The notes beneath the pieces were generated by a model that saw only the letters and a program-made list of their open reading frames with translations, searched no databases and was not told the origin of the DNA. The position numbers were made by a program, and so were the translations under genes. Shown piece after piece: positions 1,026 to 23,243 of a DNA stretch of 64,000 nt; position 1 is the first letter of the stretch; each line of letters starts with the position of its first letter. Where the stretch lies: IMG/VR virus record IMGVR_UViG_3300024303_000011; one strand, written 5' to 3'. Source of the stretch: a virus (lineage: Duplodnaviria > Heunggongvirae > Uroviricota > Caudoviricetes).

Positions 1026-1054
1026 TAGACAAGACAAAATGATTATGCTATAAT
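1026..1054 (+). promoter_or_regulatory. sigma70-like promoter P0 (TAGACA-N17-TATAAT) with ACAAAATGATT in spacer
   Basis: -35 1026-1031, -10 1049-1054; cassette near-identical to P5 at 16383-16411 (TTCGTCAAT..ACAAAATGATT..TATAAT). Confidence 0.5.
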
Positions 1055-1091
1055 ATATACACGGTTGGAGATCTTCTAGATGAATTGATCC

Positions 1092-1112
1092 AATTGTAAA
1101 CGAATTGTAAAC
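1092..1112 (+). repeat. tandem direct repeat (G)AATTGTAAAC x2, upstream element of promoter P1
   Basis: caattgtaaacgaattgtaaacg; related to 20-mer TGTTAATGAATTGTAAATAA found upstream of P2 and P3. Confidence 0.6.
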
Positions 1113-1127
1113 GATTGCAGAACCCAC

Positions 1128-1156
1128 TTGACAGACACAATCGCTTATGATATAAT
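1128..1156 (+). promoter_or_regulatory. sigma70-like promoter P1 (TTGACA-N17-TATAAT) driving tRNA/hairpin-RNA/Ro60 array
   Basis: Perfect consensus hexamers with 17-nt spacer; ACAGAATGATTC motif 20 nt downstream (1176-1187). Confidence 0.65.
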
Positions 1157-1196
1157 ATATACACGATGAACACGACAGAATGATTCATCGTGATAC

Positions 1197-1323
1197 GGGA
1201 CGGTAGCTCAGCGGACAGAGCAACGTAAACATCAACCAATGCGGTTTGACAAAATCGTATGCAGCAATTTTAATGATAAGCCTTATAAGCCGTAGGTCGC
1301 AAGTTCGAATCTTGCTCGTCCCA
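1197..1323 (+). tRNA. tRNA gene with 54-nt insertion in anticodon stem (between nt 29/30); mature anticodon UAU (Ile-like) if insert removed
   Basis: Acceptor GGGACGG/TCGTCCC, D-arm GCTC-AGCGGACA-GAGC, T-arm GCAAG-TTCGAAT-CTTGC, variable AGGTC. 5' exon ends ..AACG(1225), 3' resumes GC-CTTATAA-GCCGT at 1280 giving stem ACGGC/GCCGT. Insert 1226-1279 contains GCAGCAATTTTAA. Confidence 0.5.
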
Positions 1324-1331
1324 ACTAATAT

Positions 1332-1449
1332 GCACGGATAGCTCAGTCGGTAGAGCACAGTAATAACAGGGTTTAGCCATAAGCCCTAACAGCAACTTTA
1401 CAAATGCTTGAGGAGCCTGGTGTCGCTGGTTCAAGTCCAGCTCCGTGCA
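1332..1449 (+). tRNA. tRNA gene with 45-nt insertion between nt 29/30; mature anticodon loop TTGAGGA (anticodon GAG, class I body) if insert removed
   Basis: Acceptor GCACGGA/TCCGTGC, D-arm GCTC-AGTCGGTA-GAGC, T-arm GCTGG-TTCAAGT-CCAGC. 5' exon ..ACAG(1360), 3' resumes GC(1406)-TTGAGGA-GCCTG. Insert 1361-1405 contains AACAGCAACTTTAC. Confidence 0.45.
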
Positions 1450-1456
1450 ACAATAC

Positions 1457-1575
1457 AGGGAGATAGTCAAGTGGTAAGACAATAGACGTCAATAAATAGT
1501 CTTGCTAAAGAGTATTCAGCAATCATAGACAACCAATTCTATGTATCGGTGGTTCGAATCCATCTCTCCCTGCCA
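1457..1575 (+). tRNA. tRNA gene with ~44-nt insertion in anticodon loop (stem ATAGA/TCTAT intact); anticodon not resolvable; CCA encoded
   Basis: Acceptor AGGGAGA/TCTCCCT perfect, D-arm GTC-AAGTGGTAA-GAC, T-arm GGTGG-TTCGAAT-CCATC. Loop plus insert 1487-1537 contains TTCAGCAATCAT; ATAGAC direct repeat at both insert ends. Confidence 0.45.
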
Positions 1576-1579
1576 TCAT

Positions 1580-1643
1580 AAGGCACTAACAGCAAACTTA
1601 GATACATAATTCTTGCTATTGAAATTAGATGTAAAGGTGCCTT
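1580..1643 (+). ncRNA. hairpin RNA element A (7-bp stem AAGGCAC/GTGCCTT, 50-nt loop starting TAACAGCAAACTTAG)
   Basis: Inverted repeat read directly; loop motif shared with elements B-D and with tRNA inserts. Confidence 0.4.
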
Positions 1644-1652
1644 GAATTTTAA

Positions 1653-1741
1653 AAGACGCACACAGCAAATTTACTAAGGATAATAAATTTATTTTGTGAA
1701 TGAATTTTAGTGGGTTCAAATCCCACAAGTTTATGCGTCTT
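1653..1741 (+). ncRNA. hairpin RNA element B (stem AAGACGC/GCGTCTT; loop starts ACACAGCAAATTTAC; contains internal T-arm-like GTGGG-TTCAAAT-CCCAC)
   Basis: Inverted repeat plus tRNA T-arm mimic at 1710-1726; Y-RNA-like architecture. Confidence 0.4.
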
Positions 1742-1749
1742 GTTCAAAA

Positions 1750-1815
1750 GAGAGACCAACAGCAAACTTTATTTGGCTCCATAAAATCACTCTGCCCTAG
1801 AGAAAACGGTCTCTC
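1750..1815 (+). ncRNA. hairpin RNA element C (stem GAGAGACC/GGTCTCTC; loop starts AACAGCAAACTTTATTTGG)
   Basis: 8-bp inverted repeat with conserved loop motif. Confidence 0.4.
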
Positions 1816-1833
1816 GAACGTTAATTATATCTT

Positions 1834-1890
1834 AAGACACGCACAGCAATTTCAAGGAATAGACTTTTAATCTATAAACCTACGTGTCTT
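1834..1890 (+). ncRNA. hairpin RNA element D (stem AAGACACG/CGTGTCTT; loop starts CACAGCAATTTCAAGG); ends 37 nt before Ro60-like start
   Basis: 8-bp inverted repeat with conserved loop motif. Confidence 0.4.
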
Positions 1891-1926
1891 GGATTGATTA
1901 TAAATAATATTTTGGAGGAAATCAAA

Positions 1927-3465
1927 ATGGCATTTATGGATTCAATCAAAAATGAACTCAACAACGAGAAGCGGATCACCGAGAACGGTGCTGTGGGTTA
2001 TCGTACCACAGGTAAGGGTCTGCTGGATCTCAACTTTAGCGTGGCTTCACTGAGAAACGCATCGGAAGCAGATATCATCGATAAGTTCATTCATGCTTAT
2101 TTCGAAGATAAGCTCACTGCCACTAAGTGGCTGTTCTATGCAAGAGACGCAAGAGAGGGCCTTGGTGAACGTAGACTGTTCCGAGTTGTTATGGAAGAGT
2201 TTGCGGTACAGCAGCCTGAGATCGTCAAAGAACTGATTAAGTTTGTGCCCGAATATGGTCGCTGGGACGATCTGTGGTGCATGCTTGATACAGACATGCA
2301 GACCGATATTGTTGATATGGTTCAGAAACAGCTTCTTATTGATCTTAATAATATGAAGTTGAACAAGTCGGTTTCTCTTCTTGGAAAGTGGATGCCTAGT
2401 GAAAATGCATCTTCTGCCGAGACGAAGGCACGAGCAACACTCATCAGAAACAAGCTTGACATGACATCCAAGTATTATCGTAAGATGCTATCTAAGTTGC
2501 GCAAGTACATTGACGTCGTCGAGTGCAAGATGTCTGCTAAGCAGTGGAGTGAAATCGATTACGAGGCAGTTCCCAGTAGAGCTAACCTGATTTACAATAA
2601 CGCTTTCCTTCGTAATGATGAAGAGCGTCGCAGAGAATATCTTGGCAAGCTTGAAAAGGGCGAAGCTAAGATTAACGCCGGAGTTCTGTTCCCTCATGAC
2701 ATTGTTCACAAATATGGTCGTTCTTATGGTGTAGATGCGGCTCTTGAAGGCATGTGGAAAGCACTGCCGGATACTGTAAAGGGTTGCGGTAATACAATCG
2801 TTGTGGCTGATGGATCTGGCAGTATGCAGGTTCGAGTAGGCAATACTGATGTATCTGCTCTTGAAGTTGCTAATTCTCTTGCAATTTACTTTGCAGAGCA
2901 TTCTTCCGGTGAGTTTAAGAATAAGTATATTACGTTCAGTGAAAGGCCTCAGCTGGTTGACTTTAGCAAGGCAAAGAACCTTCGTGAGAAGCTTAATATT
3001 GCACGTCAGCATAACGAGGTAGCTAATACCAACATTGAAGCGGTGTTCGATCTGATCCTGTCTACGGCTATCAATAACCATATGCATCAGGAAGATATTC
3101 CCGTAAATATTCTGATCATCTCAGATATGGAATTTGATGGCTGTGCAACTACCAATACGGTTAGACGCAGTGGTTGGTATGCTTCATATGAGCGTCCCAC
3201 CGCAACTCTTTTTGAAACAATTGAGAAGAAGTATAGAGCTGCTGGATATAAGATCCCGCGTCTCGTGTTCTGGAACGTAAATTCTAGAACTGGCACCATT
3301 CCTGTTAAGGAAAATGATCTTGGCGTAGCTCTTGTCAGTGGCTTCTCCGTCAACATTGCTAAGATGGTTATGTCTGGAAAGACTGATCCTTACGAGTGTT
3401 TGCTTGAGGCTCTGAATGTAGAGCGGTATCAGCCTATCGAGGATGCCATTAAAGACATTTGTTAA
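1927..3465 (+). CDS. rsr: Ro60/Rsr-like RNA-binding protein (TROVE domain + C-terminal vWA domain)
   Basis: GGAGGAA RBS then ATG 1927. C-terminal vWA MIDAS VVADGSGSM and ILIISDMEFDG resemble Ro60 LLAVDVSASM and FIVFTDNETF. N-terminal region Ro60-like (ENGAVGYRTTG...ARDAREGLGERRLF). Length 512 aa. Confidence 0.55.
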   Translation: MAFMDSIKNELNNEKRITENGAVGYRTTGKGLLDLNFSVASLRNASEADIIDKFIHAYFEDKLTATKWLFYARDAREGLGERRLFRVVMEEFAVQQPEIVKELIKFVPEYGRWDDLWCMLDTDMQTDIVDMVQKQLLIDLNNMKLNKSVSLLGKWMPSENASSAETKARATLIRNKLDMTSKYYRKMLSKLRKYIDVVECKMSAKQWSEIDYEAVPSRANLIYNNAFLRNDEERRREYLGKLEKGEAKINAGVLFPHDIVHKYGRSYGVDAALEGMWKALPDTVKGCGNTIVVADGSGSMQVRVGNTDVSALEVANSLAIYFAEHSSGEFKNKYITFSERPQLVDFSKAKNLREKLNIARQHNEVANTNIEAVFDLILSTAINNHMHQEDIPVNILIISDMEFDGCATTNTVRRSGWYASYERPTATLFETIEKKYRAAGYKIPRLVFWNVNSRTGTIPVKENDLGVALVSGFSVNIAKMVMSGKTDPYECLLEALNVERYQPIEDAIKDIC

Positions 3466-3479
3466 TGAATTGTAAATAA
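3460..3479 (+). promoter_or_regulatory. conserved 20-mer TGTTAATGAATTGTAAATAA (upstream promoter element), identical copy at 7681-7700
   Basis: Exact 20/20 identity; both copies end 14 nt before a TTGACA -35 box. Confidence 0.55.
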
Positions 3480-3492
3480 AATACAATCCATA

Positions 3493-3521
3493 TTGACAAG
3501 AGTTTAACAATGTGATATAAT
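3493..3521 (+). promoter_or_regulatory. sigma70-like promoter P2 (TTGACA-N17-TATAAT) with downstream ACAGAATGATTG (3531-3542)
   Basis: Consensus hexamers; same cassette architecture as P3. Confidence 0.6.
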
Positions 3522-4025
3522 AATCACACAACAGAATGATTGAGTAGTGAGTACAGATCCATATCGAGTATGCCACAACGTACAAACTCAAGTAGGTATC
3601 GCCGTAATGCGTCTTATGTACAAAGACATCTTGAGAGTGGCAGAGATTAGCCCAACGATGTTGTAAGCAGGTAGCATAGGCGACATTTGGAGTCGTCGGA
3701 GCCGTTCGAATCGGATGAGGGTGACCACAAAGAAAATCTCTTAAAAGTACGAGATATGAAAAAGCAAGGTAAACATTAATGAACAGCCTGGTCAGCATAT
3801 GAGGATATTAATGATTAATTAATAATGAATTGACCGTTGGAAGTGGGTGCACACACGAATCCAACCCTTGCTCCTGTGGGTGAAAGTCCTACAGCTCAAT
3901 CTAATATGCCAGTTACGGCTTTGAGTGGGTTCGAGTCCCACCGCTGGTGACAAGCGGCGTATACAGCCGCAAGTTTAGTACTAAGTGTTATGGCTGTTGA
4001 ATTAGCTACTCGACGGCTATAATAT

Positions 4026-4101
4026 GTGCCTGTAGCTCAGATGGAAGAGCACATGACTTTTAATCATGGGGTCGGGAGTTCGAGCCTCCCCAGGCACACC
4101 A
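4026..4101 (+). tRNA. tRNA-Lys (anticodon UUU), CCA encoded
   Basis: Acceptor GTGCCTG/CAGGCAC, anticodon arm CATGA-CTTTTAA-TCATG, T-arm GGGAG-TTCGAGC-CTCCC. Confidence 0.8.
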
Positions 4102-4298
4102 CACGAGGCATGTATCTGCTAATGAGATTAAGTCTACGGATACTGATTTCAGAATGCCAAAAGAGCCTGTCATAGAAGATGCGGATACAGTTAATTCTAT
4201 GGTCCAAGCATACACGGAGTAGAGTGGGTTAACTTGCGATAATTCAAGCAGTATGCATAAGAGGATAGCAAGTGACAGCCGGAATAGACGGCAACAAT

Positions 4299-4431
4299 GC
4301 GGGATTGGTGGAATGGCAGACACCGGGGACTTGTTCGAGAGCCAGAGCGAAGTGAGGTCATCACTCACCTTGAGCACCAAAAATCCCCTGGTAGCAATAC
4401 CGTATCGGTTCGAGTCCGATATCCCGCACCA
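4299..4431 (+). tRNA. class II tRNA (long variable arm) with ~47-54 nt insertion in anticodon loop; anticodon UAA (Leu) or UGA (Ser) depending on junction; CCA encoded
   Basis: Acceptor GCGGGAT/ATCCCGC, anticodon stem GGGGA/TCCCC separated by 54 nt, variable hairpin GGTA-GCAA-TACC, T-arm ATCGG-TTCGAGT-CCGAT. Confidence 0.5.
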
Positions 4432-4433
4432 AA

Positions 4434-4552
4434 TAGTCACCAACAGCAACTAAATTGTCTTCGTCATAATTGAAGATGTAGCTTAGAGGTTAGAGCATCA
4501 GCCGTGAAAAGCTGAAGACGCTGGTTCGAATCCAGTCTTTAAACGGTGACTA
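4434..4552 (+). ncRNA. tRNA-like ncRNA element E: terminal stem TAGTCACC/GGTGACTA, bulge with AACAGCAACTAAATTG, D-arm, 8-nt anticodon-like loop (TCAGC-CGTGAAAA-GCTGA), T-arm GCTGG-TTCGAAT-CCAGT
   Basis: Does not fold as canonical tRNA (acceptor cannot pair) but retains D/T arms; Y-RNA (YrlA)-like layout. Confidence 0.4.
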
Positions 4553-4558
4553 GATTAT

Positions 4559-4633
4559 GGAGAATGAAGTGTAATGGTTTGCACTCCGGCCCTGGGAGCT
4601 GGAAGAGAGGTTCGATTCCTACATTTTCCACCA
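4559..4633 (+). tRNA. tRNA-Pro-like (anticodon UGG) with C33 and weak T-stem; CCA encoded
   Basis: Acceptor GGAGAAT/ATTTTCC, D-arm AGTG-TAATGGTTTG-CACT, anticodon arm CCGGC-CCTGGGA-GCTGG, T-loop TTCGATT. Confidence 0.4.
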
Positions 4634-4663
4634 TTATAAATATAATAAGGATCACGTATTAAA

Positions 4664-5122
4664 ATGGCACATTCAGGATACTCTGACGATTTTTGTATAG
4701 TATGTGGTAAGAGATTATCAAGAGGTCATTTATCACAATATTGTCAAATTCATTACAATGAACAAAGAAGAAAAGAAAAAATTGAAAAATGGCTAGAAAG
4801 CGGAGACACGGGAACGTCGGTAGACACAACAATTCGTGGTGTTATTAGGGATTATATATTAGAACAACAAAACAAATGTTGTGCAATATGTGGCATTAAA
4901 AATGAATGGAATGGAATGCAACTGAATTTTGTTCTTGATCATATTAATGGAGACGCATCTGAATCATCAAGAGACAATTTGCGTTTAATATGCCCAAACT
5001 GCGATAGTCAATTAGATACATATAAATCAAAAAATAAAAATTCTTCACGAACTAAAAGAAAAGAATTCTTAAAAAACTTAAATACATACTCAAAAAACAA
5101 AAACAATGGGGAGTTAGCCTAA
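4664..5122 (+). CDS. HNH homing-type endonuclease (Zn-ribbon + HNH)
   Basis: CIVCGK..C, VLDHINGD...NLRLICPNCD HNH motif; 3' end overlaps tRNA-Ser by 15 nt. Confidence 0.6.
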   Translation: MAHSGYSDDFCIVCGKRLSRGHLSQYCQIHYNEQRRKEKIEKWLESGDTGTSVDTTIRGVIRDYILEQQNKCCAICGIKNEWNGMQLNFVLDHINGDASESSRDNLRLICPNCDSQLDTYKSKNKNSSRTKRKEFLKNLNTYSKNKNNGELA

Positions 5123-5195
5123 TTGGTAAGGCAGCAGACTTGAAATCTGCCGTTGGCGAAAGCCATTCAGGGTTCGAGTCCCTGGCTCCCCGCCA
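5108..5195 (+). tRNA. tRNA-Ser (anticodon UGA), class II, CCA encoded
   Basis: Acceptor GGGGAGT/GCTCCCC, anticodon arm GCAGA-CTTGAAA-TCTGC, variable hairpin TGGC-GAAA-GCCA, T-arm CAGGG-TTCGAGT-CCCTG. Confidence 0.75.
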
Positions 5196-5199
5196 ATAT

Positions 5200-5286
5200 G
5201 CGAATGTGACGGAATAGGCAGACGAGGCAGACTCAAAATCTGTTGCTAGAAATAGCGTGTGAGTTCGAGTCTCACCATTCGCACCA
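5200..5286 (+). tRNA. tRNA-Leu (anticodon CAA), class II, CCA encoded
   Basis: Acceptor GCGAATG/CATTCGC, anticodon arm CAGA-CTCAAAA-TCTG, variable GCTAGAAATAGC, T-arm GTGAG-TTCGAGT-CTCAC. Confidence 0.75.
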
Positions 5287-5424
5287 GTCCCTCAGTATGG
5301 AGAGGTTTAAGAATAAGCCGATGACAAGGCAAGGAATAGTGCCATACCACTATTTGATAACCATTCATATTTCTGTATTGGTCTTACATCACATGTCCTA
5401 CAACATGCTCTTTGTGGGAGATCT

Positions 5425-5500
5425 GCGGTAGTAACTCAATTGGTAGAGTACCTGCCCTCCAAGCAGGATGTTGCGAGTTCGAGTCTCGTCTATCGCTCCA
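5425..5500 (+). tRNA. tRNA-Gly-like (anticodon UCC; loop CCTCCAA with C33), CCA encoded
   Basis: Acceptor GCGGTAG/CTATCGC, anticodon stem CCTGC/GCAGG, T-arm GCGAG-TTCGAGT-CTCGT. Alternative Trp reading rejected because a canonical Trp loop CTCCAAA exists at 6252. Confidence 0.5.
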
Positions 5501-5505
5501 ATTAT

Positions 5506-5580
5506 GCCCCTGTAGCTCAGTGGAAGAGCAACGCCCTTCTAAGGCGACGGTCAGGAGTTCGAATCTCTTCAGGGGTGCCA
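5506..5580 (+). tRNA. tRNA-Arg (anticodon UCU), CCA encoded
   Basis: Acceptor GCCCCTG/CAGGGGT, anticodon arm ACGCC-CTTCTAA-GGCGA, T-arm AGGAG-TTCGAAT-CTCTT. Confidence 0.75.
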
Positions 5581-5703
5581 GCGGAATATACGTCACTTCT
5601 GTCGTCGTTGCTCAGCGGATAGCCATTGGTAGTGGAGCGAGCAGTCATGACACACTGCGACCAATGGGTTAACAAGGAAGGCAATGGTTTATTCCGCTTC
5701 ATA

Positions 5704-5780
5704 TGGGACATTAGCTCAGCTGGTCAGAGCATCCGGCTCATAACCGGGCGGTCCAAAGTTCGAATCTTTGATGTCCCACC
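5704..5780 (+). tRNA. tRNA-Met/Ile2 (anticodon CAU), CCA encoded
   Basis: Acceptor GGGACAT/ATGTCCC, anticodon arm TCCGG-CTCATAA-CCGGG, T-arm CAAAG-TTCGAAT-CTTTG. Confidence 0.75.
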
Positions 5781-5784
5781 AATA

Positions 5785-5877
5785 CGGAGGAGTACCCAAG
5801 TAGGTGAAGGGGCGGGTTTGCTAAACCTGTAGGTCATCGCAAGGTGGCGCGTGGGTTCGAACCCCACCTCCTCCGCC
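5785..5877 (+). tRNA. tRNA-Ser (anticodon GCU), class II, CCA encoded
   Basis: Acceptor GGAGGAG/CTCCTCC, anticodon arm CGGGT-TTGCTAA-ACCTG, long variable arm, T-arm GTGGG-TTCGAAC-CCCAC. Confidence 0.75.
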
Positions 5878-6015
5878 AGAAGAGCATCTGTCTTATGCTC
5901 TGCTAAAAGCATAGTGAAGGCGATATATAACCATAGACTTTGGATAGTTATGATACGGTTAGAGACTATCGCTATTATTTATCTTAGCGCTGAGATTTTT
6001 AGTAGTCCGTTTTAT

Positions 6016-6090
6016 TGGGGTGTAGCCAAGCGGTAAGGCAGCGGACTTTGACTCCGCCATTCGCATGTTCGAATCATGCCATCCCAGCCA
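6016..6090 (+). tRNA. tRNA-Gln (anticodon UUG), U1-A72, CCA encoded
   Basis: Acceptor TGGGGTG/CATCCCA, anticodon arm GCGGA-CTTTGAC-TCCGC, T-arm GCATG-TTCGAAT-CATGC. Confidence 0.7.
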
Positions 6091-6251
6091 GTACGGTGGT
6101 CTTTGGTAGTAATCACGCACCCGTTAAAGAGCCAATTGACGAATTGGCAAAGTGGAAACTACATGCCATAACTTCCAAGTGTACATAAGAAGTTAAACGG
6201 TAACTACGGTTTGAGAGGATCTTGCGTAGTAAAACCCAATCCTCAGTTTAT

Positions 6252-6325: not shown

Positions 6326-6352
6326 TTAAAATTTATTCAAAGGAGAAGAGAC

Positions 6353-6466: not shown

Positions 6467-6471
6467 TAAAC

Positions 6472-6576: not shown

Positions 6577-6587
6577 GGAGATTTAAT

Positions 6588-7648: not shown

Positions 7649-7683
7649 AAAGGAGAGTTTAACATGGCTCTCCTTTTATTTGT
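7649..7683 (+). terminator. rho-independent terminator (AAAGGAGAG...CTCTCCTTT + T-rich tail)
   Basis: 9-bp stem, 10-nt loop, followed by TATTTGTT. Confidence 0.6.
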
Positions 7684-7713
7684 TAATGAATTGTAAATAA
7701 TGGAATATAGTTA

Positions 7714-7741
7714 TTGACAAAGCTAAGATTTTAAGTATAAT
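7714..7741 (+). promoter_or_regulatory. sigma70-like promoter P3 (TTGACA-N16-TATAAT) with upstream 20-mer (7681-7700) and downstream ACAAAATGATTG (7751-7762)
   Basis: Same cassette as P2 with identical 14-nt spacing from the 20-mer. Confidence 0.6.
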
Positions 7742-7755
7742 ATATACAGTACAAA

Positions 7756-8805
7756 ATGATTGAAAGGTTTAAACGAATGACAATCAGTGAAATAAAATCC
7801 ATGTTAAAAACACCGGAATATGGATTCCTAAAAACGAATGAGCATCTTGGGCCTAATGTTATTTTACTAACGCTTGGTGGCAGCTACGCATATGGAACAA
7901 ATGTTGAAACATCAGATGTTGATATTCGTGGTTGCGCTTTGAACTCAAAAGAGGAAATTTTGACGAATAAAAATTTCGAACAGTTTGTCAATGAAGAAAC
8001 AGATACAACGATCTATAGCTTTAATAAGCTTATCAGTCTGCTTTCTAACGTAAACCCAAATACTATTGAACTGCTTGGATGTAAGCCCGAACATTATGTA
8101 TATCTTTCTCCAGTAGGTAAAGAGCTGCTGGAACATAAACATCTGTTTTTGTCTAAAAAGTGTGTACATTCTTTTGGCGGATATGCGAACGCACAGCTCA
8201 GACGTCTAGACAACAAAGCAGCGAGACTTGTTACGCAGACAGAACAAGAACATCATATTTTAAAAAGTATCGAAAATGCCTCATATACCTTCAAAGAGCA
8301 TTACTTCAAATATGACGATGAGGCCATCAAGCTATATATCGATAAATCAGAGTCTGAAGAATATGATACTGAAATCTTTATGGATGTAAATCTTAAGCAT
8401 TATCCTTTGCGGGACTACAAAGGAATGTGGTCTGTAATGCACAATGTTGTTAAAGAATACGGCAAGATCGGAAAGCGCAATTCTCATGCAATAGAGCATG
8501 GCAAACTTGGTAAGCACATGATGCATTTGGTCAGGCTGTATCTAATGTGTCTTGATATTCTTAACGATGGCGAAATTATTACATACAGAGAAAAAGATCA
8601 CGACTTCCTTATGAGTATTCGCAATGGTAAATATCTAGATGACAACAGACAGCCAACGCCTGAGTTCTTTGATATTGTTGATGACTTGGAGGCTAAGCTG
8701 GATGCGGCAAAACATAGTACGGATCTACCAGATAATCCTGATTATAAAAAGATCAATGAGTTCGTTGCTTCTGTGAATGAAAGAATTGTTAGAGGTGAAG
8801 TATAA
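7756..8805 (+). CDS. Pol-beta superfamily nucleotidyltransferase (GS...DxD), function unknown
   Basis: LTLGGSYAYGTNVETSDVDIRG NTase signature. ATG 7756 lies inside the conserved promoter-proximal motif, so true start may be ATG 7777 (MTISEIKS). Confidence 0.5.
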   Translation: MIERFKRMTISEIKSMLKTPEYGFLKTNEHLGPNVILLTLGGSYAYGTNVETSDVDIRGCALNSKEEILTNKNFEQFVNEETDTTIYSFNKLISLLSNVNPNTIELLGCKPEHYVYLSPVGKELLEHKHLFLSKKCVHSFGGYANAQLRRLDNKAARLVTQTEQEHHILKSIENASYTFKEHYFKYDDEAIKLYIDKSESEEYDTEIFMDVNLKHYPLRDYKGMWSVMHNVVKEYGKIGKRNSHAIEHGKLGKHMMHLVRLYLMCLDILNDGEIITYREKDHDFLMSIRNGKYLDDNRQPTPEFFDIVDDLEAKLDAAKHSTDLPDNPDYKKINEFVASVNERIVRGEV

Positions 8806-9741: not shown

Positions 9742-9743
9742 TA

Positions 9744-13802: not shown

Positions 13803-15758
13803 ATGGAAAAGATAGAACGAATTAAAGAGTTGGTTGAGCTACTTAATCATTACAGAAATGAATATTATAATAACCAACGCAGTGAAATTTCTGATTTTGA
13901 ATATGATCTATTTTATGATGAGCTATCAGAGCTAGAGAGTGAAACTGGATTCATTATGGCCACTTCTCCTACTCAGACTGTTGGCTATGAAGTCAGATCG
14001 GAACTAACTAAAGTAAGACATAACCATCCAATGCTTTCACTTGACAAGACGAAAGAAATTGGCGATGTAGTTAAGTTTCTTGATGGAAGAGACGGCGTAG
14101 TGATGGCCAAAATGGACGGACTAACATGTTCACTTCGATATCTAGATGGAGAACTTGTTTCTGCGGAGACGAGGGGTGATGGAGAAACCGGTGAAGATAT
14201 TTTACACTGCGCTAAGACCATTAAAAACATTCCTTTGCATATTAACTGTAAGGATGAGATTATTGTAGATGGTGAGGTTATCATTTCATATGATGATTTC
14301 GAAAAGATTAACTCAACACTCCCCGAAGATGAAAAATATAAACATCCTCGCAATCTCGCATCAGGATCTATTCGTCAGCTTGATAGTGCTATAGCAGCAC
14401 AGAGAAATATGCAGTTTGTTGCGTGGAAGTTAATTAAGGGTTGTAACCTTAACTCTTTTACAGATAGATGGATAATAATGGGAGAACTAGGGTTTGATGT
14501 AGTCCCAATGATTCCTCTTAATAGGGAATGTGTTGATTATGATAGACTTCAACACGTAATTATGCTCATTCAAAAAATTGCGCAGAATTATGGTTATCCA
14601 ATTGATGGTTGCGTAATTGGTTATGATGACGTTGCCTACGGTGACTCTCTTGGTGCAACCGGGCATCACCTAAGAAGTCAGCTTGCATATAAGTTTTATG
14701 ACGAGCTATACGAAACCAAATTGCTTGATATTGAATGGACAATGGGCAAAACAAACACTCTCACGCCAACTGCTGTTTTTGAAACAGTTAATATTGATGG
14801 AACCGACGTAAGCAAAGCGTCATTGCACAACATTTCCATCATCAAGAAACTAGGACTGACTAATAATTGCACCGTAAAAGTTTATAAAGCCAACCAAATC
14901 ATTCCGCAGATTGACTCTTGCCTCCAAGATGGCGATTCTCCTATAATTCCGCCTAAGTACTGCCCGGTTTGCGGACATGAAACAGAAGTTGTGAAGGAGA
15001 ATGAATCCGAAGTTTTGGTATGTAAAAATAATAACTGTTCAGGCAAATTACTTGGCAGATTGAAGTTCTTCGTATCTAAACCCGCGATGAATATCGACAG
15101 CTTAAGCGAAGCCACTCTGGAAAAATTCATTGAACTTGGATGGATTACAAACTTCCTTGATATTTATTATTTAGACGTAAATAAATCAGACATGATGAAG
15201 CTTGATGGATTTGGCAAGAAGTCTGTGGATAAACTCCTCAATGCAATTGAACAAAGTAAAAACGTTAAACTAGAAAACTTTATCACGGCACTCTCTATTG
15301 ACGGCGTCGGAAAGTCAGCCTCCAAGACTATTTCCGCAGCTTTTGACGGCGATTTCGACAAACTACTTAAGGCATTTAAGGATGATTTCAATTGGTCCGA
15401 TTTAGAGGACATTGGCAGTATTACATCTTCAAATATCACGAAGTACTTTGCAGAAAACGAGAAAGAAATTTGCGATCTTGCCGCTGAGATGAACTTTATT
15501 AAACCAGAAAAAGTCGAAATCAAAGCAAATCCATTTAGCGGGAAAACCCTATGCGTGACAGGAAAATTGACGAAATTCACCAGAGATAGTATTAATGAAA
15601 AAATTGTTTCTCTTGGTGCAAAATCTGCCGGATCAGTTTCTTCAAAAACAGATTACTTAATTACAAATGAACAAAGTGGCAGTAGTAAATACAAGAAAGC
15701 CGTTGAATTAAATATTCCAATCATTACAGAAGAAGAGTTTCTTAAGATGATCTCTTGA
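13803..15758 (+). CDS. ligA: NAD-dependent DNA ligase
   Basis: Adenylation motif AKMDGL (KxDG), Zn-finger CPVCG...C..NNC, C-terminal BRCT-like; 651 aa. Confidence 0.75.
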   Translation: MEKIERIKELVELLNHYRNEYYNNQRSEISDFEYDLFYDELSELESETGFIMATSPTQTVGYEVRSELTKVRHNHPMLSLDKTKEIGDVVKFLDGRDGVVMAKMDGLTCSLRYLDGELVSAETRGDGETGEDILHCAKTIKNIPLHINCKDEIIVDGEVIISYDDFEKINSTLPEDEKYKHPRNLASGSIRQLDSAIAAQRNMQFVAWKLIKGCNLNSFTDRWIIMGELGFDVVPMIPLNRECVDYDRLQHVIMLIQKIAQNYGYPIDGCVIGYDDVAYGDSLGATGHHLRSQLAYKFYDELYETKLLDIEWTMGKTNTLTPTAVFETVNIDGTDVSKASLHNISIIKKLGLTNNCTVKVYKANQIIPQIDSCLQDGDSPIIPPKYCPVCGHETEVVKENESEVLVCKNNNCSGKLLGRLKFFVSKPAMNIDSLSEATLEKFIELGWITNFLDIYYLDVNKSDMMKLDGFGKKSVDKLLNAIEQSKNVKLENFITALSIDGVGKSASKTISAAFDGDFDKLLKAFKDDFNWSDLEDIGSITSSNITKYFAENEKEICDLAAEMNFIKPEKVEIKANPFSGKTLCVTGKLTKFTRDSINEKIVSLGAKSAGSVSSKTDYLITNEQSGSSKYKKAVELNIPIITEEEFLKMIS

Positions 15759-15782
15759 CAAAATCAATCGCATCATATAAAA
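15756..15782 (+). promoter_or_regulatory. promoter P4 (TTGACA-N15-TATAAA) with downstream ACAGAATGATTG (15790-15801)
   Basis: Hexamers plus conserved downstream motif. Confidence 0.45.
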
Positions 15783-15813
15783 TAAACACGACAGAATGAT
15801 TGGGAGTGATAAA

Positions 15814-16332: not shown

Positions 16333-16382
16333 ATTATATATAATGCATATATTATATCGTTAAAGTTTGTGCAGTTCGTCAA

Positions 16383-16411
16383 TTTACAATACAAAATGAT
16401 TGTGATATAAT
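16383..16411 (+). promoter_or_regulatory. promoter P5 (TTTACA-N17-TATAAT) with ACAAAATGATTG in spacer; paralogue of P0
   Basis: TTCGTCAATTTACAATACAAAATGATTGTGATATAAT vs P0 TTCGTCAATAGACAAGACAAAATGATTATGCTATAAT. Confidence 0.5.
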
Positions 16412-16441: not shown

Positions 16442-16741
16442 ATGGAAGAAGAAAAGGTATCAGCTGCGGTTGCAGAAATTAAAAATGCCAATGAAGACGA
16501 TCTAAAGAAGGTCATCACTCAGTGGTTTGAATCCACGAGAACATCTGGAATGAAAATTGGAGCAAAGATGATTAGTGCTGCAGTTTTTGCCGCAATTCAA
16601 AAGCACACTGTAAAGCCCGGCAAAGTTTCTTTGCGCGATTATGAAAGAATGACGGCGGAGATTAAGAAACTGATTTCTGTACAGCTTACAGAACAAAATG
16701 ATTCGGAAGAGGTAAATGAAGATGACGGAACAGCAGAGTAA
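16442..16741 (+). CDS. hypothetical protein
   Basis: ORF with RBS. Confidence 0.3.
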   Translation: MEEEKVSAAVAEIKNANEDDLKKVITQWFESTRTSGMKIGAKMISAAVFAAIQKHTVKPGKVSLRDYERMTAEIKKLISVQLTEQNDSEEVNEDDGTAE

Positions 16742-17989: not shown

Positions 17990-18277
17990 ATGAATTCAAT
18001 AGAAAAATTTATATCATTATTTGACGGCGATGATCGTTACTTAAACGGATTGTGCTACTGGTTTACTTATATGCTTAAAGGAAGATTTCCTGATGGTGTA
18101 ATTTGGTATGATCAGGTTTTGTGTCATTTTTACTTTGTTTTTGATGATAATGCTTATGATGTTAGAGGTCTTGTTGATTTACCTAAGACAGCAATAAAAT
18201 GGGATGATTATCAAAAGTTTGATTCGTCTGATTATCAAAGAGTTATGAAATATTGTATTTTAAAGGAAGGTGAATAA
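17990..18277 (+). CDS. hypothetical protein
   Basis: ORF. Confidence 0.3.
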   Translation: MNSIEKFISLFDGDDRYLNGLCYWFTYMLKGRFPDGVIWYDQVLCHFYFVFDDNAYDVRGLVDLPKTAIKWDDYQKFDSSDYQRVMKYCILKEGE

Positions 18278-18280
18278 GAT

Positions 18281-18976
18281 TTGATTAAGATTGAAAGAAT
18301 AAATGTTTTCAATTTTGATGGTGCAATACGTGGCATGCGTAATCCTATGAACAGTTGGGACAAGAGTGATAGTTTTTGGGACTTATCGGAGCACCCAGGC
18401 AGATTTGTGATTGGTGAAAACGACCTTAAACTGGCACGATCTCTCGCTAAGTCCGGCTCGGATCACCGCAAGTTTTTAAGACAGATTTTCGTTTCCGTGG
18501 ACATTACTGCACCGCTATATTGGTGGAAGGAATTTGATACTTATAAAGTGGGAACGGTGGTCAACTCGTGTTCTACGATGCATAAGATCCATGACAAAGA
18601 ATTTACCACCAAGGATTTTAGTTGTGAGGATTTACTTGACGGAACAAACTCATCCGAAGAAGAAATTTTGTGCACAACACCCGGTAATTATTATACGTCT
18701 CTTGGAGTTCTATCTATGGTAACACGGGCTCTGAACTTTTATAGAGAGTTATATATTAAAACAAAAGACAAAAAATATTGGAAGCAAATGATTCAGCTTC
18801 TACCGTCAAGTTATAACCAGATGCGCACTTGTACTCTAACATATGAAAATATTCTAAATATGCATCGCGCACGCAAGAACCATAAACTAGACGAATGGAT
18901 TCAAATATGTGGCGTATTTGAAACGCTTCCATACTTTAAGGAAATCTGTTTAGAGGTGCAGTCAGATGGCAATTAA
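18281..18976 (+). CDS. hypothetical protein
   Basis: GGAAGGTGA RBS, TTG start. Confidence 0.3.
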   Translation: MIKIERINVFNFDGAIRGMRNPMNSWDKSDSFWDLSEHPGRFVIGENDLKLARSLAKSGSDHRKFLRQIFVSVDITAPLYWWKEFDTYKVGTVVNSCSTMHKIHDKEFTTKDFSCEDLLDGTNSSEEEILCTTPGNYYTSLGVLSMVTRALNFYRELYIKTKDKKYWKQMIQLLPSSYNQMRTCTLTYENILNMHRARKNHKLDEWIQICGVFETLPYFKEICLEVQSDGN

Positions 18977-19229
18977 CGAAGACGTAAGGGCAGAGCTGGA
19001 TGATGAAACACTGGTCTTTGATAATCCATCCTTTGATAACTCTATTATTGGTATAACGACAGATGGTCAAGCAGTTTATTGCTACGACTCTATGGTTCGT
19101 GAATTAATGGAGGACGATAACATATCTGAACAAGATGCAATTGACTGGATTGAATATAATACACTGAGATCCATTCCTTATGCTGGTCCAATGGCACCGG
19201 TCGTAGTGTTTCTAATCAAGGAGGTTTGA
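18966..19229 (+). CDS. hypothetical protein
   Basis: ORF. Confidence 0.3.
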   Translation: MAINEDVRAELDDETLVFDNPSFDNSIIGITTDGQAVYCYDSMVRELMEDDNISEQDAIDWIEYNTLRSIPYAGPMAPVVVFLIKEV

Positions 19230-19234
19230 TAATA

Positions 19235-19816
19235 ATGAATGATAAAGAGCATGTGTTGATGTGCATAATGGGAGAATCTTCTTGCGGGAAGGATACACTG
19301 GTAAATGAACTGTGCCGTCGAAATCATCTAAATCAAATCATCTCATATACTACACGACCACGAAGAATCAATGAGGGAGATACACACATTTTCGTTGACG
19401 AAGATACATATACGCAGATGAGAGAAGACAATGAGATTGCTGCCTATACATGCATTAACGGCAACCATTATTGGTCCACCATCGATCAGCTGTATAAGTG
19501 TGATTATTATATTATAGACCCTACAGGTGTCGAATCTCTTAAGGCGCTAAATCTTCCAAACTTACGACTCGTTACAGTATATATAAATGTACCAGAAGAC
19601 ACTCGTAGAGAGCGGGCAAAAATGCGTGGGGATGATATGGATGTATATCGCAGCCGTTGTCTATCAGAGCGTGAACAGTTCCGAAATATGAAAAAGAATA
19701 TGGACGTAGAATGGGTTATTTCAAATATTGATTTTGCAGAAGCTTATTCTATGCTAAAATGGCTCTCTGATGTAAAAGGAGTTTGGAAAAACTATACGGA
19801 GGACGCTACAGAATGA
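19235..19816 (+). CDS. guanylate-kinase-family nucleotide kinase
   Basis: P-loop GESSCGKDT, TTRPRR guanylate kinase-like motif; AAGGAGG RBS. Confidence 0.5.
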   Translation: MNDKEHVLMCIMGESSCGKDTLVNELCRRNHLNQIISYTTRPRRINEGDTHIFVDEDTYTQMREDNEIAAYTCINGNHYWSTIDQLYKCDYYIIDPTGVESLKALNLPNLRLVTVYINVPEDTRRERAKMRGDDMDVYRSRCLSEREQFRNMKKNMDVEWVISNIDFAEAYSMLKWLSDVKGVWKNYTEDATE

Positions 19817-20382
19817 TTATCTGTGTTGACATTGATAACTGCCTAAACAACCTCGGCGAAAAAATGTTGGAAATTTATAATTCACGCTTTAATAAGAAAC
19901 TTCAAATGTCAGATTTGACGTCTTATAATTTTGCGGAATGCATGCCTAAATGTGATGCCGATGCACTCTGTTCGCTTTTTAAGGAGAAGGATCTTTGGGA
20001 CTCTCTTAAACCGCTTCCGGGAGCACGCGAAACACTTAAGAGACTGTCGCAGAAAGGACACCGCATTTATCTAGCAACGGCAACAGATCCAATCAACTTT
20101 GAATGGAAATGCTCATGGGTATCCACATTCTATCCGTTTATTCCAACCGATCATATTATCCGTATTATGGATAAAAGCATGCTGAGAGTGGATGTAATGA
20201 TAGATGACCATTTAGATAATCTGATTGGCAATATCTGTGAACGTATTTGCTTGGATTATCCATACAACAGAAGCATTACAAAAGATTTTTCTTATGATAT
20301 CAATCGAGCTTACAATTGGAGCGAAATTGAAAAATTTATTGAAGATATAGAAAGGAAGAATCAAGAATGGGAGAGAGGGTAA
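19813..20382 (+). CDS. HAD-superfamily 5'(3')-deoxyribonucleotidase-like
   Basis: DxDxT-type motif VDIDNCL at N-terminus after GGAGGA RBS. Confidence 0.45.
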   Translation: MIICVDIDNCLNNLGEKMLEIYNSRFNKKLQMSDLTSYNFAECMPKCDADALCSLFKEKDLWDSLKPLPGARETLKRLSQKGHRIYLATATDPINFEWKCSWVSTFYPFIPTDHIIRIMDKSMLRVDVMIDDHLDNLIGNICERICLDYPYNRSITKDFSYDINRAYNWSEIEKFIEDIERKNQEWERG

Positions 20383-20573
20383 TTTTATATTCAACGCATT
20401 GCCCAAGATGTCTTGTTATTGCCAGAAAACTGCAAGGCGCCGGCATTCAATACGAAGAGGTTAATGACGTAGAAGTAATGAAGACTAAGGGGTTTCAGGA
20501 AGCTCCAAAGCTTGAAGTAAACGGAGTAATTATGGACTTTAAGGATGCCGTGAAATGGATTGGAGAACAGTAA
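20367..20573 (+). CDS. glutaredoxin-like redoxin (CPRC)
   Basis: YSTHCPRC active site, 68 aa; precedes nrdD. Confidence 0.5.
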   Translation: MGERVILYSTHCPRCLVIARKLQGAGIQYEEVNDVEVMKTKGFQEAPKLEVNGVIMDFKDAVKWIGEQ

Positions 20574-20576
20574 AAT

Positions 20577-22517
20577 ATGGATATTGAACTTAAATTTAAC
20601 AAAGATTTTGAAAGAGCGCTGTATAATTTAAGAGAAAAATATGGAGAAGATTTTGAAATCCTTAACGGCATACATAGTTCTCAAATGAACTTTTCTGATT
20701 TTATTGATGCTTTTGTCGATAAAAATGTGGCAGATGTCACAATAGACTCAAACGCAAATGCCTCTAATAAAGACATTGCATCGTTCAGAACTGAAAAAGG
20801 TAAATCAATCGATAAAGTCATTGCAGCCAATAAAATCTTTTACGAAATTAAAAAGAAGTATGGTTTGAAAACAGCAAAGGAATGGCTTGAAACGGAATAT
20901 ACTGGCGGTTTTTATCTGCACGACTTCCCGTCTACGACATATGTACCTTATTGTTATGCATATGATCTTAGCAGATTGGCAACTGAAGGACTTTTCTTCT
21001 TGAATAATTATAATTCACGTCCTCCTAAGCACTTGACCACATTTATCGATGATGTAATTGAATTCATCAGTTTCATGTCTAATAGATCTTCTGGGGCAGT
21101 TGGAATTCCAAATATTCTTGTATGGACATATTATTTCTGGAAAAAAGATTGTGAAAGCGGATTTATTATCAACAATCCTGATTATTATGTTAGACAGTCG
21201 TTCCAAAAACTCATCTATAGACTGAATCAGCCATTTATGCGAATCGATCAGTCCGCATTCGTAAATGTTTCAATCTTTGACAAAGAATATTATGAAGCTC
21301 TGTTTGGCGGACTCGAATTCCCAGATGGAACATTTGCAATTGACTATGTAGACGAATTTATCGAACATCAAAAAATCTTCATGGAAGTTGTATCTGAGAT
21401 TAGACAAGAAAACATGTTCACATTTCCCGTTTTGACATATTCTCTTCTTTATAAAGATGGAAAGTTCGTAGACGAAGAATTTGCGAGATGGTGTTCTGAT
21501 CATAACTGTAAATGGAATGACTCAAACTTCTTTGTAAGCGGTGATGTAACAACGCTCAGTAACTGTTGTAGACTTCTTTCCGATACGTCTAAGCTTAAAG
21601 GATTCATTAACTCTATTGGTGGAACAGCGCTCAGCATTGGTTCTGTTAAGGTTAATACAATCAACCTCGTGCATATCTTCTATGAACTTGGAGATGAGGT
21701 ATCTGAAAAGAAATATTTGAATCTACTCAAGAAACGAACTGTTTTATGTTGTAAGGTTCTTGATAGAGTTAGACATATTATTCAGAGAAATATTGAAAAG
21801 AAACTACTTCCTAATTATTGTGACGGCGGCATAGAAATGGATAAACAGTATTGTACAGTTGGAATTCTCGGCCTCTACGAAACAATGGAGAAGTTTGGAT
21901 ATATCGATACAGATGAATTTGGCAACAAGTTCTATACCGAAGATGGCATGGATTTTGCAAGCAAGATCTTTGATGTGCTCAATGAAACAAAAGATGGATT
22001 TACTGATGAATATTCCTTCAACATTGAAAGTGTCCCGGCTGAACAGGCGGCAGTAAAACTTTGTGCTAAAGACAATATTCTATTTGATGTTCATGATAAC
22101 TTTATCTATAGTAATCAGTGGATTCCGCTTACAGCAAAGTGTACTATCAACGAAAAGATTAGAACCAGCGCAATTCTCGATAATAAGTGTTCAGGTGGCG
22201 CAATAGCCCACATTAACATCGATAATAATTTCCCAAATACTGAGATGGCATGGGAGATGCTTAATTACATTGCTAGCCAGGGCGTCATTTATTTCTGCTA
22301 TAACACAAAAATCAATGTTTGCAAAAACCATCACGGTTTTGTAGATAGCGATATTTGTCCTGAGTGTGGAGAGCATGCATGCGATACATATCAAAGAGTT
22401 GTTGGATTCCTAACTCCTTCTAAGTCTTATAGCAAAGAAAGATTTAAGGAATTTTCTGCAAGAGAATGGTATGATACCGCCGCTATGTATGGCGAAACAT
22501 CTCTGATTGGTGATTAA
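20577..22517 (+). CDS. nrdD: anaerobic ribonucleoside-triphosphate reductase
   Basis: C-terminal Zn site CPECG..C and glycyl-radical motif RVVGFLTP; 646 aa. Confidence 0.7.
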   Translation: MDIELKFNKDFERALYNLREKYGEDFEILNGIHSSQMNFSDFIDAFVDKNVADVTIDSNANASNKDIASFRTEKGKSIDKVIAANKIFYEIKKKYGLKTAKEWLETEYTGGFYLHDFPSTTYVPYCYAYDLSRLATEGLFFLNNYNSRPPKHLTTFIDDVIEFISFMSNRSSGAVGIPNILVWTYYFWKKDCESGFIINNPDYYVRQSFQKLIYRLNQPFMRIDQSAFVNVSIFDKEYYEALFGGLEFPDGTFAIDYVDEFIEHQKIFMEVVSEIRQENMFTFPVLTYSLLYKDGKFVDEEFARWCSDHNCKWNDSNFFVSGDVTTLSNCCRLLSDTSKLKGFINSIGGTALSIGSVKVNTINLVHIFYELGDEVSEKKYLNLLKKRTVLCCKVLDRVRHIIQRNIEKKLLPNYCDGGIEMDKQYCTVGILGLYETMEKFGYIDTDEFGNKFYTEDGMDFASKIFDVLNETKDGFTDEYSFNIESVPAEQAAVKLCAKDNILFDVHDNFIYSNQWIPLTAKCTINEKIRTSAILDNKCSGGAIAHINIDNNFPNTEMAWEMLNYIASQGVIYFCYNTKINVCKNHHGFVDSDICPECGEHACDTYQRVVGFLTPSKSYSKERFKEFSAREWYDTAAMYGETSLIGD

Positions 22518-23000
22518 ATGATTATCAAAGAAATTCGAGACGAAGATTTTACAAGTTACAAAAAACCATCAATGGTAATCGGATTCCCATATTGTAGTTG
22601 GAAATGTGGTAAGAGGCTGTGTCAAAACAGCTCTCTTGCCAAATCACCAAATATAGAAATTGACGTTAATATATTGGTTAAAAGATATATTAATAATCCA
22701 ATAACCCATGCAATTATCTGTGCTGGATTAGAACCTTTTGATAGTCCATTGGCATTGCCGGAATTAGTTAAAGAATTTCGTAAATATACTAATGATGATA
22801 TTGTCATATATACTGGGTATAGAAAAGATGAACTGGTCAACGGCTTTGATTCATTAAAAGAAGCTTATAATAAGATTCAGCAATGTAAAAACATTATTAT
22901 CAAGTTTGGTCGTTTTGTTCCAAACGAAGAGCCACATTACGATGCTGTTTTGGGTGTGAAATTAGCATCATCAAATCAGTATGCTGAAAGGATATCATAA
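22518..23000 (+). CDS. nrdG: anaerobic RNR activating protein-like (radical SAM, short form)
   Basis: Cys cluster CSWKCGKRLC directly downstream of nrdD. Confidence 0.45.
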   Translation: MIIKEIRDEDFTSYKKPSMVIGFPYCSWKCGKRLCQNSSLAKSPNIEIDVNILVKRYINNPITHAIICAGLEPFDSPLALPELVKEFRKYTNDDIVIYTGYRKDELVNGFDSLKEAYNKIQQCKNIIIKFGRFVPNEEPHYDAVLGVKLASSNQYAERIS

Positions 23001-23212
23001 TGGTTAAATATAAAATTGTTCTTGGTGACGACAAAGCGCTTGTCGCAGAGGTAAATAGACAACTGCAAGAGACGCGAGGATATTGCCCATGCGCTCTTGA
23101 ATGGAATGAATCAACAAAATGTGTTTGCTCTGCATTCAGAGAATCGCTGGCAAAAGGCGAAGAGACTGAATGTAATTGTGGCAAATACAAGATTATCAAA
23201 GTAGAAGATTAA
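23000..23212 (+). CDS. Cys-rich hypothetical protein
   Basis: ORF. Confidence 0.3.
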   Translation: MVKYKIVLGDDKALVAEVNRQLQETRGYCPCALEWNESTKCVCSAFRESLAKGEETECNCGKYKIIKVED

Positions 23213-23243
23213 CAACACAAAATGATTGAAAGGAAGATGAATT

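Follow-up and report, generated by a model that had tools for sequence, protein, structure and literature searches.

The window analysed here, a 64,000-nucleotide (nt) stretch of the IMG/VR virus record IMGVR_UViG_3300024303_000011 (Caudoviricetes), is part of a contig of ~170.7 kilobases (kb) that was assembled three times independently. Bases 1 to ~20 of the window differ from the three contigs at 10 positions, and the rest of the 13.4-kb overlap is identical. The window encodes a large serine integrase, which is found in the same place in related contigs, as well as siphovirus tail genes, RNA-repair genes and genes for nicotinamide adenine dinucleotide (NAD) salvage. The phage is most likely temperate and SPβ-like, with an uncultured host of Firmicutes type. 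Among cultured and deposited phages, a near-identity search with the first 8 kb returned no close isolate. The element described below is a repeated, asymmetric 17-nt motif located on early promoters and between genes, which is probably the operator of a phage-encoded repressor of the MrpR (YopR) family.

The 12-nt core of the motif, ACARAATGATTG, is present in six exact copies in the window against 0.05 expected, and the 11-mer ACARAATGATT is present in 11 copies against 0.26 expected. The original prediction on this DNA listed eight copies of the 12-mer, of which six are exact and two match at 11 of 12 positions (1034, ending in A, and 1175, ending in C); the copies at 16693, 19808 and 57061–57071 (−) were missed. 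For alignment, 58 non-redundant motif sites were pooled from the window and related contigs. At positions −5 to −3, which lie outside the search pattern, A, C and A are found in 57, 52 and 50 sites, respectively; a purine occupies position 17 in 52 sites, and downstream of the motif conservation ceases. The full unit is an asymmetric 17-mer, ACA-NN-ACA(A/G)AATGATT(G/A), that is 5 nt longer than the core on the upstream side, and its 16-mer form ACANNACARAATGATT occurs in nine exact and two one-mismatch copies in the window. The 11 window copies match the coding strand of their arm: nine are plus-strand copies in the early/metabolic arm (1–27 kb) and two are minus-strand copies in the structural arm. 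Four further sense 17-mers are found in the 8 kb upstream of the window, giving 15 sites in 72 kb, all of them oriented with local transcription; 13 are in the early/metabolic arm, and the 36 kb of structural genes hold two, neither of which heads an operon. The motifs seen in relatives comprise 35 in the sense and two in the antisense orientation. A literature search with the 12-mer string returned unrelated primers only, and a scan of viral DNA for the 17-mer (15 specified bases) gave, among the matches listed, mostly chance singletons.

A scan of the window for the promoter consensus TTGACA-N16-18-TATAAT with at least 11 of 12 matches identified ten sites. The motif is present on all six intergenic plus-strand promoters (1026, 1128, 3493, 7714, 15755 and 16383), and the four promoters without it are that of the integrase module (24763) and three that are antisense or intragenic. 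Two further motif promoters are located in the 8 kb upstream, for a total of eight promoter-associated copies in 72 kb. The motif on these promoters falls within the RNA polymerase footprint, and across the window and its relatives three registers can be distinguished. Where the motif lies past the −10, the core begins 9, 9, 7 and 18 nt downstream in the window (given as 9–20 nt in the original prediction), and with this spacing the ACA triad covers the expected start site. Where it lies in the spacer, the arrangement is T(T/A)(G/T)ACA-NN-core-TGN-TATAAT, with the ACA of the −35 forming the first triad; this register is represented by six promoters from four lineages and is also found at L104:1094, 7 kb upstream of the window. 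In the third register, seen in L025, L042 and L169, the final TTG of the motif is the start of the −35 TTGACA. The remaining copies are promoterless, with no −10 downstream, and are situated between a stop codon and the next Shine-Dalgarno sequence (SD), in one case past the 3′ end of a tRNA (L040:3015) and in another inside the 3′ end of a gene (16688). At most sites ahead of a protein gene the motif ends 10–19 nt before the ATG, and the SD often starts with the last G of the motif; the copies at 1175 and 3531 precede tRNA-like regions or regions free of open reading frames (ORFs) rather than proteins.

Much of this architecture had been recognized in the original prediction, although not the longer unit, the large number of promoterless copies or the link to SPβ. 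The exact 20-mer TGTTAATGAATTGTAAATAA is present upstream of promoters P2 and P3 (at 3460 and 7681), separated from the −35 by 13 nt rather than the 14 nt claimed, and the tandem variant AATTGTAAAC is present at P1 (1092 and 1103). The second, paralogous cassette reported at 1026 and 16383 is likewise found, with TTCGTCAAT preceding both copies at 1018 and 16375. Three of the four promoters described as TTGACA/TATAAT match at 12 of 12 positions (1128, 3493 and 7714), and the fourth (15755) matches at 11. The ATG within the motif was said not to be a real start codon, which holds for the listed copies, where an SD follows the motif; at 19808 the ATG, which overlaps the upstream stop as ATGA, is probably the true start of gene 19813–20382.

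The cassette is conserved in approximately 20 related uncultured phage contigs in which the promoter spacers have diverged, so that the loss of the motif in related phages, named in the original prediction as the outcome that would speak against it, is not what is seen. The string TATAAT-N9-ACARAATGATTG was recovered from uncultured viral contigs in 36 stretches, with two to three copies present in several of the contigs of 100–175 kb. The recurring full cassette consists of one or two AATTGTAAA boxes (11-bp period), ~14 nt, TTGACA, N16-17, TATAAT, the 17-mer and an SD. When the promoter of the zinc-ribbon gene (P4) is aligned in five phages (the window and four relatives), the spacers are diverged and the −35, the −10 and the motif are invariant. 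The promoterless copy at 16688 is also invariant in four diverged orthologous sites of relatives, with diverged flanks and a distance to the next ATG of 11–40 nt, and the copy at 23212 is kept at the same junction in L013, L031 and L047.

More distant relatives, retrieved through their DUF2828 protein, carry variants of the motif in the same architecture, promoterless sites included. The L002 clade has the variant ACAnnACAAAGTGATT (also given as ACAAAGTGATT) at seven sense sites in 21 kb, and L001 has the variant ACA(A/G)TACAAAATTAAT (ACAAAATTAAT) at five sense sites in 18 kb, together with one ACAAAATGAAT copy. Such a concerted change at all sites of two sister lineages points to recognition by one sequence-specific trans-acting factor. 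The L002 clade, in which the 17-mer is altered, has kept the AATTGTAAA boxes as they are, so that these represent a separate module; they lie at about −50 to −70 and probably function as an UP-like element or in binding an activator. A 131-residue protein of one relative (L221:422–817) contains the C-terminal domain of RNA polymerase alpha (PF03118) and might relate to these boxes, which occupy the UP-element position. In L009, a more distant relative, a different repeat, (G)TNTCTAAATATGGT, is found at several sites (e.g. 7904, 19430−, 11605), in promoter spacers and once as an inverted pair, and looks like an analogous operator system of other specificity. L008 contains DnaA-box-like sequences, ATGTGGATAA and TTATCCACAT, nine times in 21.5 kb, which may mark a replication origin.

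In Bacillus phage SPβ, ten early promoter regions carry the element SPBRE, which is bound by the master repressor MrpR (YopR), a protein with a recombinase fold, as determined by chromatin affinity purification sequencing, electrophoretic mobility shift and reporter assays (PMC10516654). A candidate for the corresponding protein is encoded in the relatives of the window. The contig L169 has four exact motif copies; one of its promoters is overlapped by the motif at the −35 and precedes, in this order, a gene for a YopP-like tyrosine recombinase (24% identical to YopP, E value 2e-5) and an MrpR-like gene. The 313-residue product of the latter exhibits homology to MrpR by BLASTP (24% identity over 135 N-terminal residues, E value 3e-6). 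The domain PF22823 (MrpR_C_cat) is precomputed for all 120 listed of the 723 homologues of this protein, and gene-context tables list it for the MrpR-like proteins without a weak flag. A homologue of YorF is encoded near the gene. The MrpR-like gene occurs once in every large motif-carrying relative, including a 172.7-kb relative whose NrdD is 96% identical to that of the window. In all of these large relatives the repressor operon starts, ~2 kb upstream of the gene, with a promoter that carries a AATTGTAAA box and is overlapped by the motif at its −35. Two of the relatives have a palindromic pair, ACAAAATGATTG-caa-TAATCATTTTGT, located over TTGCAA-N17-TATAAT directly upstream of the MrpR-like gene, and the palindrome partners are the sole antisense copies seen (two, against 35 sense copies). 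The tyrosine recombinase at L169:3637–4686 was considered as the MrpR analogue and rejected, as it is YopP-like and its catalytic residues are kept (by eye). Pfam and PHROG scans of the small early proteins of the window identified no helix-turn-helix (HTH) protein, sigma factor or repressor.

The cassette most commonly recovered from relatives drives a tiny ORF, a second motif copy and then a gene for a 949-residue protein that is homologous to YonO of SPβ (E values of ~1e-19 to 1e-23) and exhibits 36% identity over its whole length to a protein of Clostridium phage c-st. YonO-like proteins are annotated as DNA-directed RNA polymerase in the SPβ-like phages Goe12–14. An example is L018:7550–7700 (−), with equivalents in L020, L024 and L029, where the tiny ORF (MYGAFWTIYW...) is conserved. 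This layout resembles that of yonP-yonO in SPβ, the promoter of which carries SPBRE. The positions of all sites in the window, together with the repressor-operon and polymerase promoters of relatives, are given in Table 1.

Table 1. Motif sites and cassettes of the window, and motif-bearing promoters of relatives
Feature	Position (strand)	Composition	Flanking features
Exact ACARAATGATTG copies (exact string match)	3531, 7751, 15791, 16391, 23217 (+); 45880–45891 (−)		
Spacer-type cassette	1018..1054 (+)	TTCGTCAAT, then TAGACA-N17-TATAAT (11/12, −35 at 1026); 17-mer 1029–1045 occupies the spacer and shares the ACA of the −35; extended −10 TG follows	
Tandem upstream boxes	1091..1112 (+)	(C/G)AATTGTAAAC twice, 11-bp period	Last base 15 nt before the −35 of P1
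P1	1128..1186 (+)	TTGACA-N17-TATAAT (12/12); 17-mer 1170–1186, ending in C	Drives tRNA-like non-coding RNAs
P2 cassette	3460..3542 (+)	20-mer box 3460–3479; TTGACA-N17-TATAAT 3493–3521 (12/12); 17-mer 3526–3542	Drives an ORF-free region, then tRNA genes
P3 cassette	7681..7762 (+)	20-mer box 7681–7700; TTGACA-N16-TATAAT 7714–7741 (12/12); 17-mer 7746–7762	SD GAAAGG and ATG 7777 (RlaP-like gene) downstream; hairpin ~7649–7676 upstream
P4 cassette	15755..15802 (+)	TTGACA-N17-TAAAAT (11/12); 17-mer 15786–15802	17-mer abuts the SD of the zinc-ribbon gene (ATG 15814)
Spacer-type cassette, paralogue of 1018–1054	16375..16411 (+)	TTCGTCAAT, TTTACA-N17-TATAAT (11/12, −35 at 16383); 17-mer 16386–16402 in the spacer	
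Promoterless copy	16688..16704 (+)		Within the 3′ end of gene 16442–16741; HD-domain gene (16722) downstream
One-mismatch copy, membership of the motif family uncertain	19803..19819 (+)	ACG for ACA	Over the ATGA stop/start junction of genes 19235–19816 and 19813–20382
Promoterless copy	23212..23228 (+)		Between the stop of gene 23000–23212 and the SD of gene 23244–23513
Promoterless copy	45880..45896 (−)		Immediately upstream of the SD of the HNH endonuclease gene 44919–45860 (−)
One-mismatch copy	57060..57076 (−)	ATA for ACA	Right after a TATAAT; before the SD of gene 56471–57043 (−)
Motif at repressor-operon and yonP-yonO-like promoters (relatives)	L217:8016; L221:8037; L249:3842 and 5927–5952; L018:7656 and 7559		

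The motif is a real and biologically meaningful feature, and is best classed with the repressor-operator systems of SPBRE/MrpR type, as one from an uncultured SPβ-like clade in which the numerous oriented copies without a promoter are the unusual trait. On balance, the 17-mer is probably the counterpart of SPBRE, a reading drawn from sequence comparison that includes promoterless copies which may block elongation. The proposed mechanism is that a phage-encoded repressor of the MrpR (YopR) family binds the 17-mer, which on strong early promoters of host sigma-A type overlaps the start site, the spacer or the −35. The bound repressor would block initiation, because the site lies where RNA polymerase must sit, and this would keep the lytic genes silent in the lysogen. 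The promoterless copies, which are sense-oriented and located in tight gene junctions, could be extra binding sites, serving as roadblocks to read-through in the manner of the stoperators of mycobacteriophage L5 or as anchors for repressor oligomers. The operator reading accounts for the overlap in three registers, the concerted variants, the autoregulatory sites and the parallels with SPβ; the role of the promoterless copies is one that we infer.

Several observations weigh against the operator reading. About half of the sites are promoterless and are located right before a ribosome binding site, a type of site not described for SPβ, and a signal at the RNA level would also fit these. The 14 near-invariant positions of the motif make it far less degenerate than most operators. 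The MrpR homologues of the clade are divergent from YopR, with the 24% identity confined to 135 residues, and in the copy of Pfam that was searched they score below the curated cut-off of both MrpR models (PF22822/PF22823), against 6.7e-146 for YopR itself. The MrpR-like gene is known from relatives, and in the genome to which the window belongs it is expected ~25 kb upstream of the window. An integrated prophage with the cassette was not found among 185,579 species-representative genomes; the cassette scan of this collection gave 55 scattered single matches over all phyla, which is chance level, and the full cassette in none, and it identified no host. As no prophage was found, we infer lysogeny from the integrase alone.

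The presence of a YonO homologue in relatives suggests another reading, in which a phage-encoded single-subunit RNA polymerase of YonO type uses the 17-mer as its promoter. Transcription would start at the terminal purine, genes behind a host-type promoter would be read by the host and then by the phage enzyme, and those behind promoterless copies by the phage polymerase only. The promoter recognised by YonO is unknown (PMC5467207), which makes this reading attractive; the stringent conservation and constant sense orientation are like those of phage polymerase promoters, the purine at position 17 in 52 of 58 sites would suit the proposed start, co-evolving pairs of polymerase and promoter also show concerted lineage variants, and one copy lies ahead of an endonuclease gene, as self-contained promoters often do. 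However, in SPβ the late structural genes form one operon that YonO transcribes from a single start site (PMC5467207), whereas the motif is biased to early genes (13 of 15), heads none of the late operons of the window and is also found in front of the gene for YonO. No SPBRE-like sequence is present in the SPβ region with the YonO start site, the leaders would be only 10–19 nt long and start at the SD, and there would be no rationale for the overlap with host promoters in three registers or for the palindrome on the repressor promoter. This reading is considered unlikely. A version in which the 17-mer is a promoter type of the YonO family that drives middle (metabolic/replication) genes from many short promoters, unlike the single late operon of SPβ, is given somewhat less credence again.

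The motif could also act in RNA, as a 5′ leader before the ribosome binding site that is bound by a factor of the phage or the host for the enhancement or repression of translation or the processing of long transcripts, comparable to the start-associated sequence (SAS) of mycobacteriophages or the targets of RegA and RegB in T4. All copies in the 72 kb are on the sense strand, the motif mostly ends 10–19 nt before the ATG with its final G often opening the SD, past promoters its first base falls at about +1 to +14 of the RNA, and one copy is situated between the 3′ end of a tRNA and the next gene (L040:3015). These features fit a leader, but the spacer and −35 copies lie upstream of the start site and nevertheless hold exact register across lineages, several copies (1175, 3531, L017, L021 and L040:1622) are followed by genes for tRNA-like or non-coding RNAs, which lack an SD, the distance to the next start codon at the conserved in-gene site varies (11–40 nt), and the antisense partner of the palindrome cannot serve as a sense-strand RNA signal. 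No consistent hairpin is formed at the motif sites, and RNA complementary to the motif was sought within the window and not found. An RNA-level role is considered improbable. The original prediction had allowed for a binding site of a phage regulator, an anti-sigma or activator site, or a leader or processing site; the first is favoured here and specified as an MrpR-type operator, and the last fits the copies next to ribosome binding sites and not those in the spacer, over the −35 or in the palindrome. The least credible proposal is that the cassettes are mainly mobile regulatory units, offering short homology for the shuffling of modules as suggested for the PeSL cassettes of T4-type phages, a function that would be compatible with a regulatory role. 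Unrelated genes are flanked by near-identical blocks, the site after the SPFH gene has a full cassette in the window and the motif only in the L002 clade, and there is published precedent (PMC2839356); against this, 17 bp of homology is short for recombination, and the concerted variants, fixed registers and strictly kept orientation point to recognition of a specific sequence. A sigma-dependent pause element (AATGAT resembles a −10), sigma appropriation through a MotA-box-like sequence, AR9-type AACA-N6-TW promoters and the boxes of host regulators (Fur, CodY, cre and LexA) were each rejected on sequence or geometry.

Several features of neighbouring genes were also observed. Downstream of P1, Rfam identifies tRNA matches at 1332–1449 and 1457–1572 of 116–118 nt with a large insertion, which were not called by ARAGORN, and there is a weak, sub-threshold match to YrlA (Y RNA-like) at 1276–1379. 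The tRNA-like RNAs (1196–1572) adjoin a DUF2828/DUF7788/VWA protein (1927–3465) that PHROGs labels as an RNA-binding protein, and together they may form a Ro/Y-RNA-like module. The region of ~480 nt between P2 and tRNA-Lys (3543–4025) has no convincing ORF and no Rfam match and could be a non-coding RNA, and two more tRNA-like matches missed by ARAGORN are located at 4472–4541 and 4558–4630. The integrase module (24555–27340) is bracketed by terminator-like hairpins at 24557–24584 (+) and 27025–26999 (−), and its own promoter at 24763 is without the motif; a 51-residue ORF at 27185–27340 is ribbon-helix-helix-like by eye and has no Pfam match. The HNH gene at 44919–45860 (−) sits between very long minus-strand ORFs at 45955–55842 and 37811–42919, and ~2 kb at 42919–44919 are without a minus-strand ORF. 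The original prediction referred to a tape-measure intron here, a label that is unconfirmed, as no match to a group I or group II intron at the Rfam threshold was identified anywhere in the window. The 8 kb upstream of the window (L104:1–8074) encode a PARP-like ADP-ribosyltransferase adjoining a protein that by eye resembles a macro domain, as well as a possible RNA ligase (likewise by eye), a dCMP deaminase, an amidase and the alpha subunit of DNA polymerase III. Together with the Pnkp, RlaP and NAD-salvage genes of the window, this region makes up a large set of RNA-repair and NAD/ADP-ribose genes.

To our knowledge, silencing of a large prophage by MrpR and SPBRE has been described, in 2023, for Bacillus phage SPβ only. 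If the operator reading is correct, the same logic would extend to a broad group of uncultured phages of 100–175 kb from Firmicutes of gut or rumen type. The clean operator consensus and its natural specificity variants would be useful for understanding how a repressor with a recombinase fold reads DNA, and the motif would mark early transcription units and predict immunity groups from sequence alone. The repressor might also act at many promoterless, oriented sites inside operons, a mode of action that we know so far from mycobacteriophages only.

Four known systems share features with the motif. The PeSL promoter-terminator cassettes of T4-type phages, which combine a promoter with a stem-loop and have been assigned a role in shuffling (PMC2839356), are similarly families of near-identical early-promoter cassettes scattered in a phage genome and flanking unrelated genes; here, however, the defining block is the 17-mer, which resembles a protein-binding site and is found also without a promoter. 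The SAS of Cluster K mycobacteriophages contains the SD, lies 3–7 bp from the start codon and is of unproven function (PMC3203893). Like the 17-mer, it is an asymmetric repeat in one orientation that lies just ahead of start codons, mostly in the non-structural genome half, but the 17-mer precedes the SD at a distance of 10–40 nt from the ATG and is present in promoter spacers and ahead of RNA genes as well. The stoperators of mycobacteriophage L5 are asymmetric sites in short intergenic spaces that are oriented with transcription (PMC9283540). They share with the 17-mer a short asymmetric site, a location on early promoters and in short intergenic spaces, strict orientation with transcription and variants in related phages. 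They differ in their unrelated sequence and in their repressor, which is monomeric with HTH and stoperator domains rather than of MrpR type with a recombinase fold, and a block of elongation is only proposed for the sites described here.

The closest likeness is to SPBRE and MrpR of SPβ. SPBRE, derived here from the SPβ record as ACAAATACAAAWAATATGTATAWA, has the 5′ half ACA-AAT-ACAAAA in common with the 17-mer, and the 3′ half is ATGATTG here and AATATGTATATA in SPβ. The systems differ in that the element here is separate from the −10 and often downstream of it, in the many promoterless intercistronic copies, in density (15 sites in 72 kb compared to ~10 in 134 kb), in the order of the repressor operon (P-R-Q in relatives and P-Q-R in SPβ) and in the hosts, which are uncultured anaerobes here. 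Both are found in large temperate siphophages that encode a serine integrase together with a YonO polymerase, and both consist of a single conserved asymmetric element repeated on many sigma-A early promoters. In SPβ, SPBRE forms the −35 ACA, the 17-nt spacer and the −10 at yonP, yorE and aimR and abuts the SD at yopM, yopV and the second yonX copy; the 17-mer likewise uses the −35 ACA and fills a 17-nt spacer, with other copies abutting the SD. In the relatives, as in SPβ, the element is present at the promoter of the operon of a small gene and yonO and at that of the repressor operon, and the gene of the MrpR family adjoins a YopP-like recombinase in an operon that resembles yopM–R.

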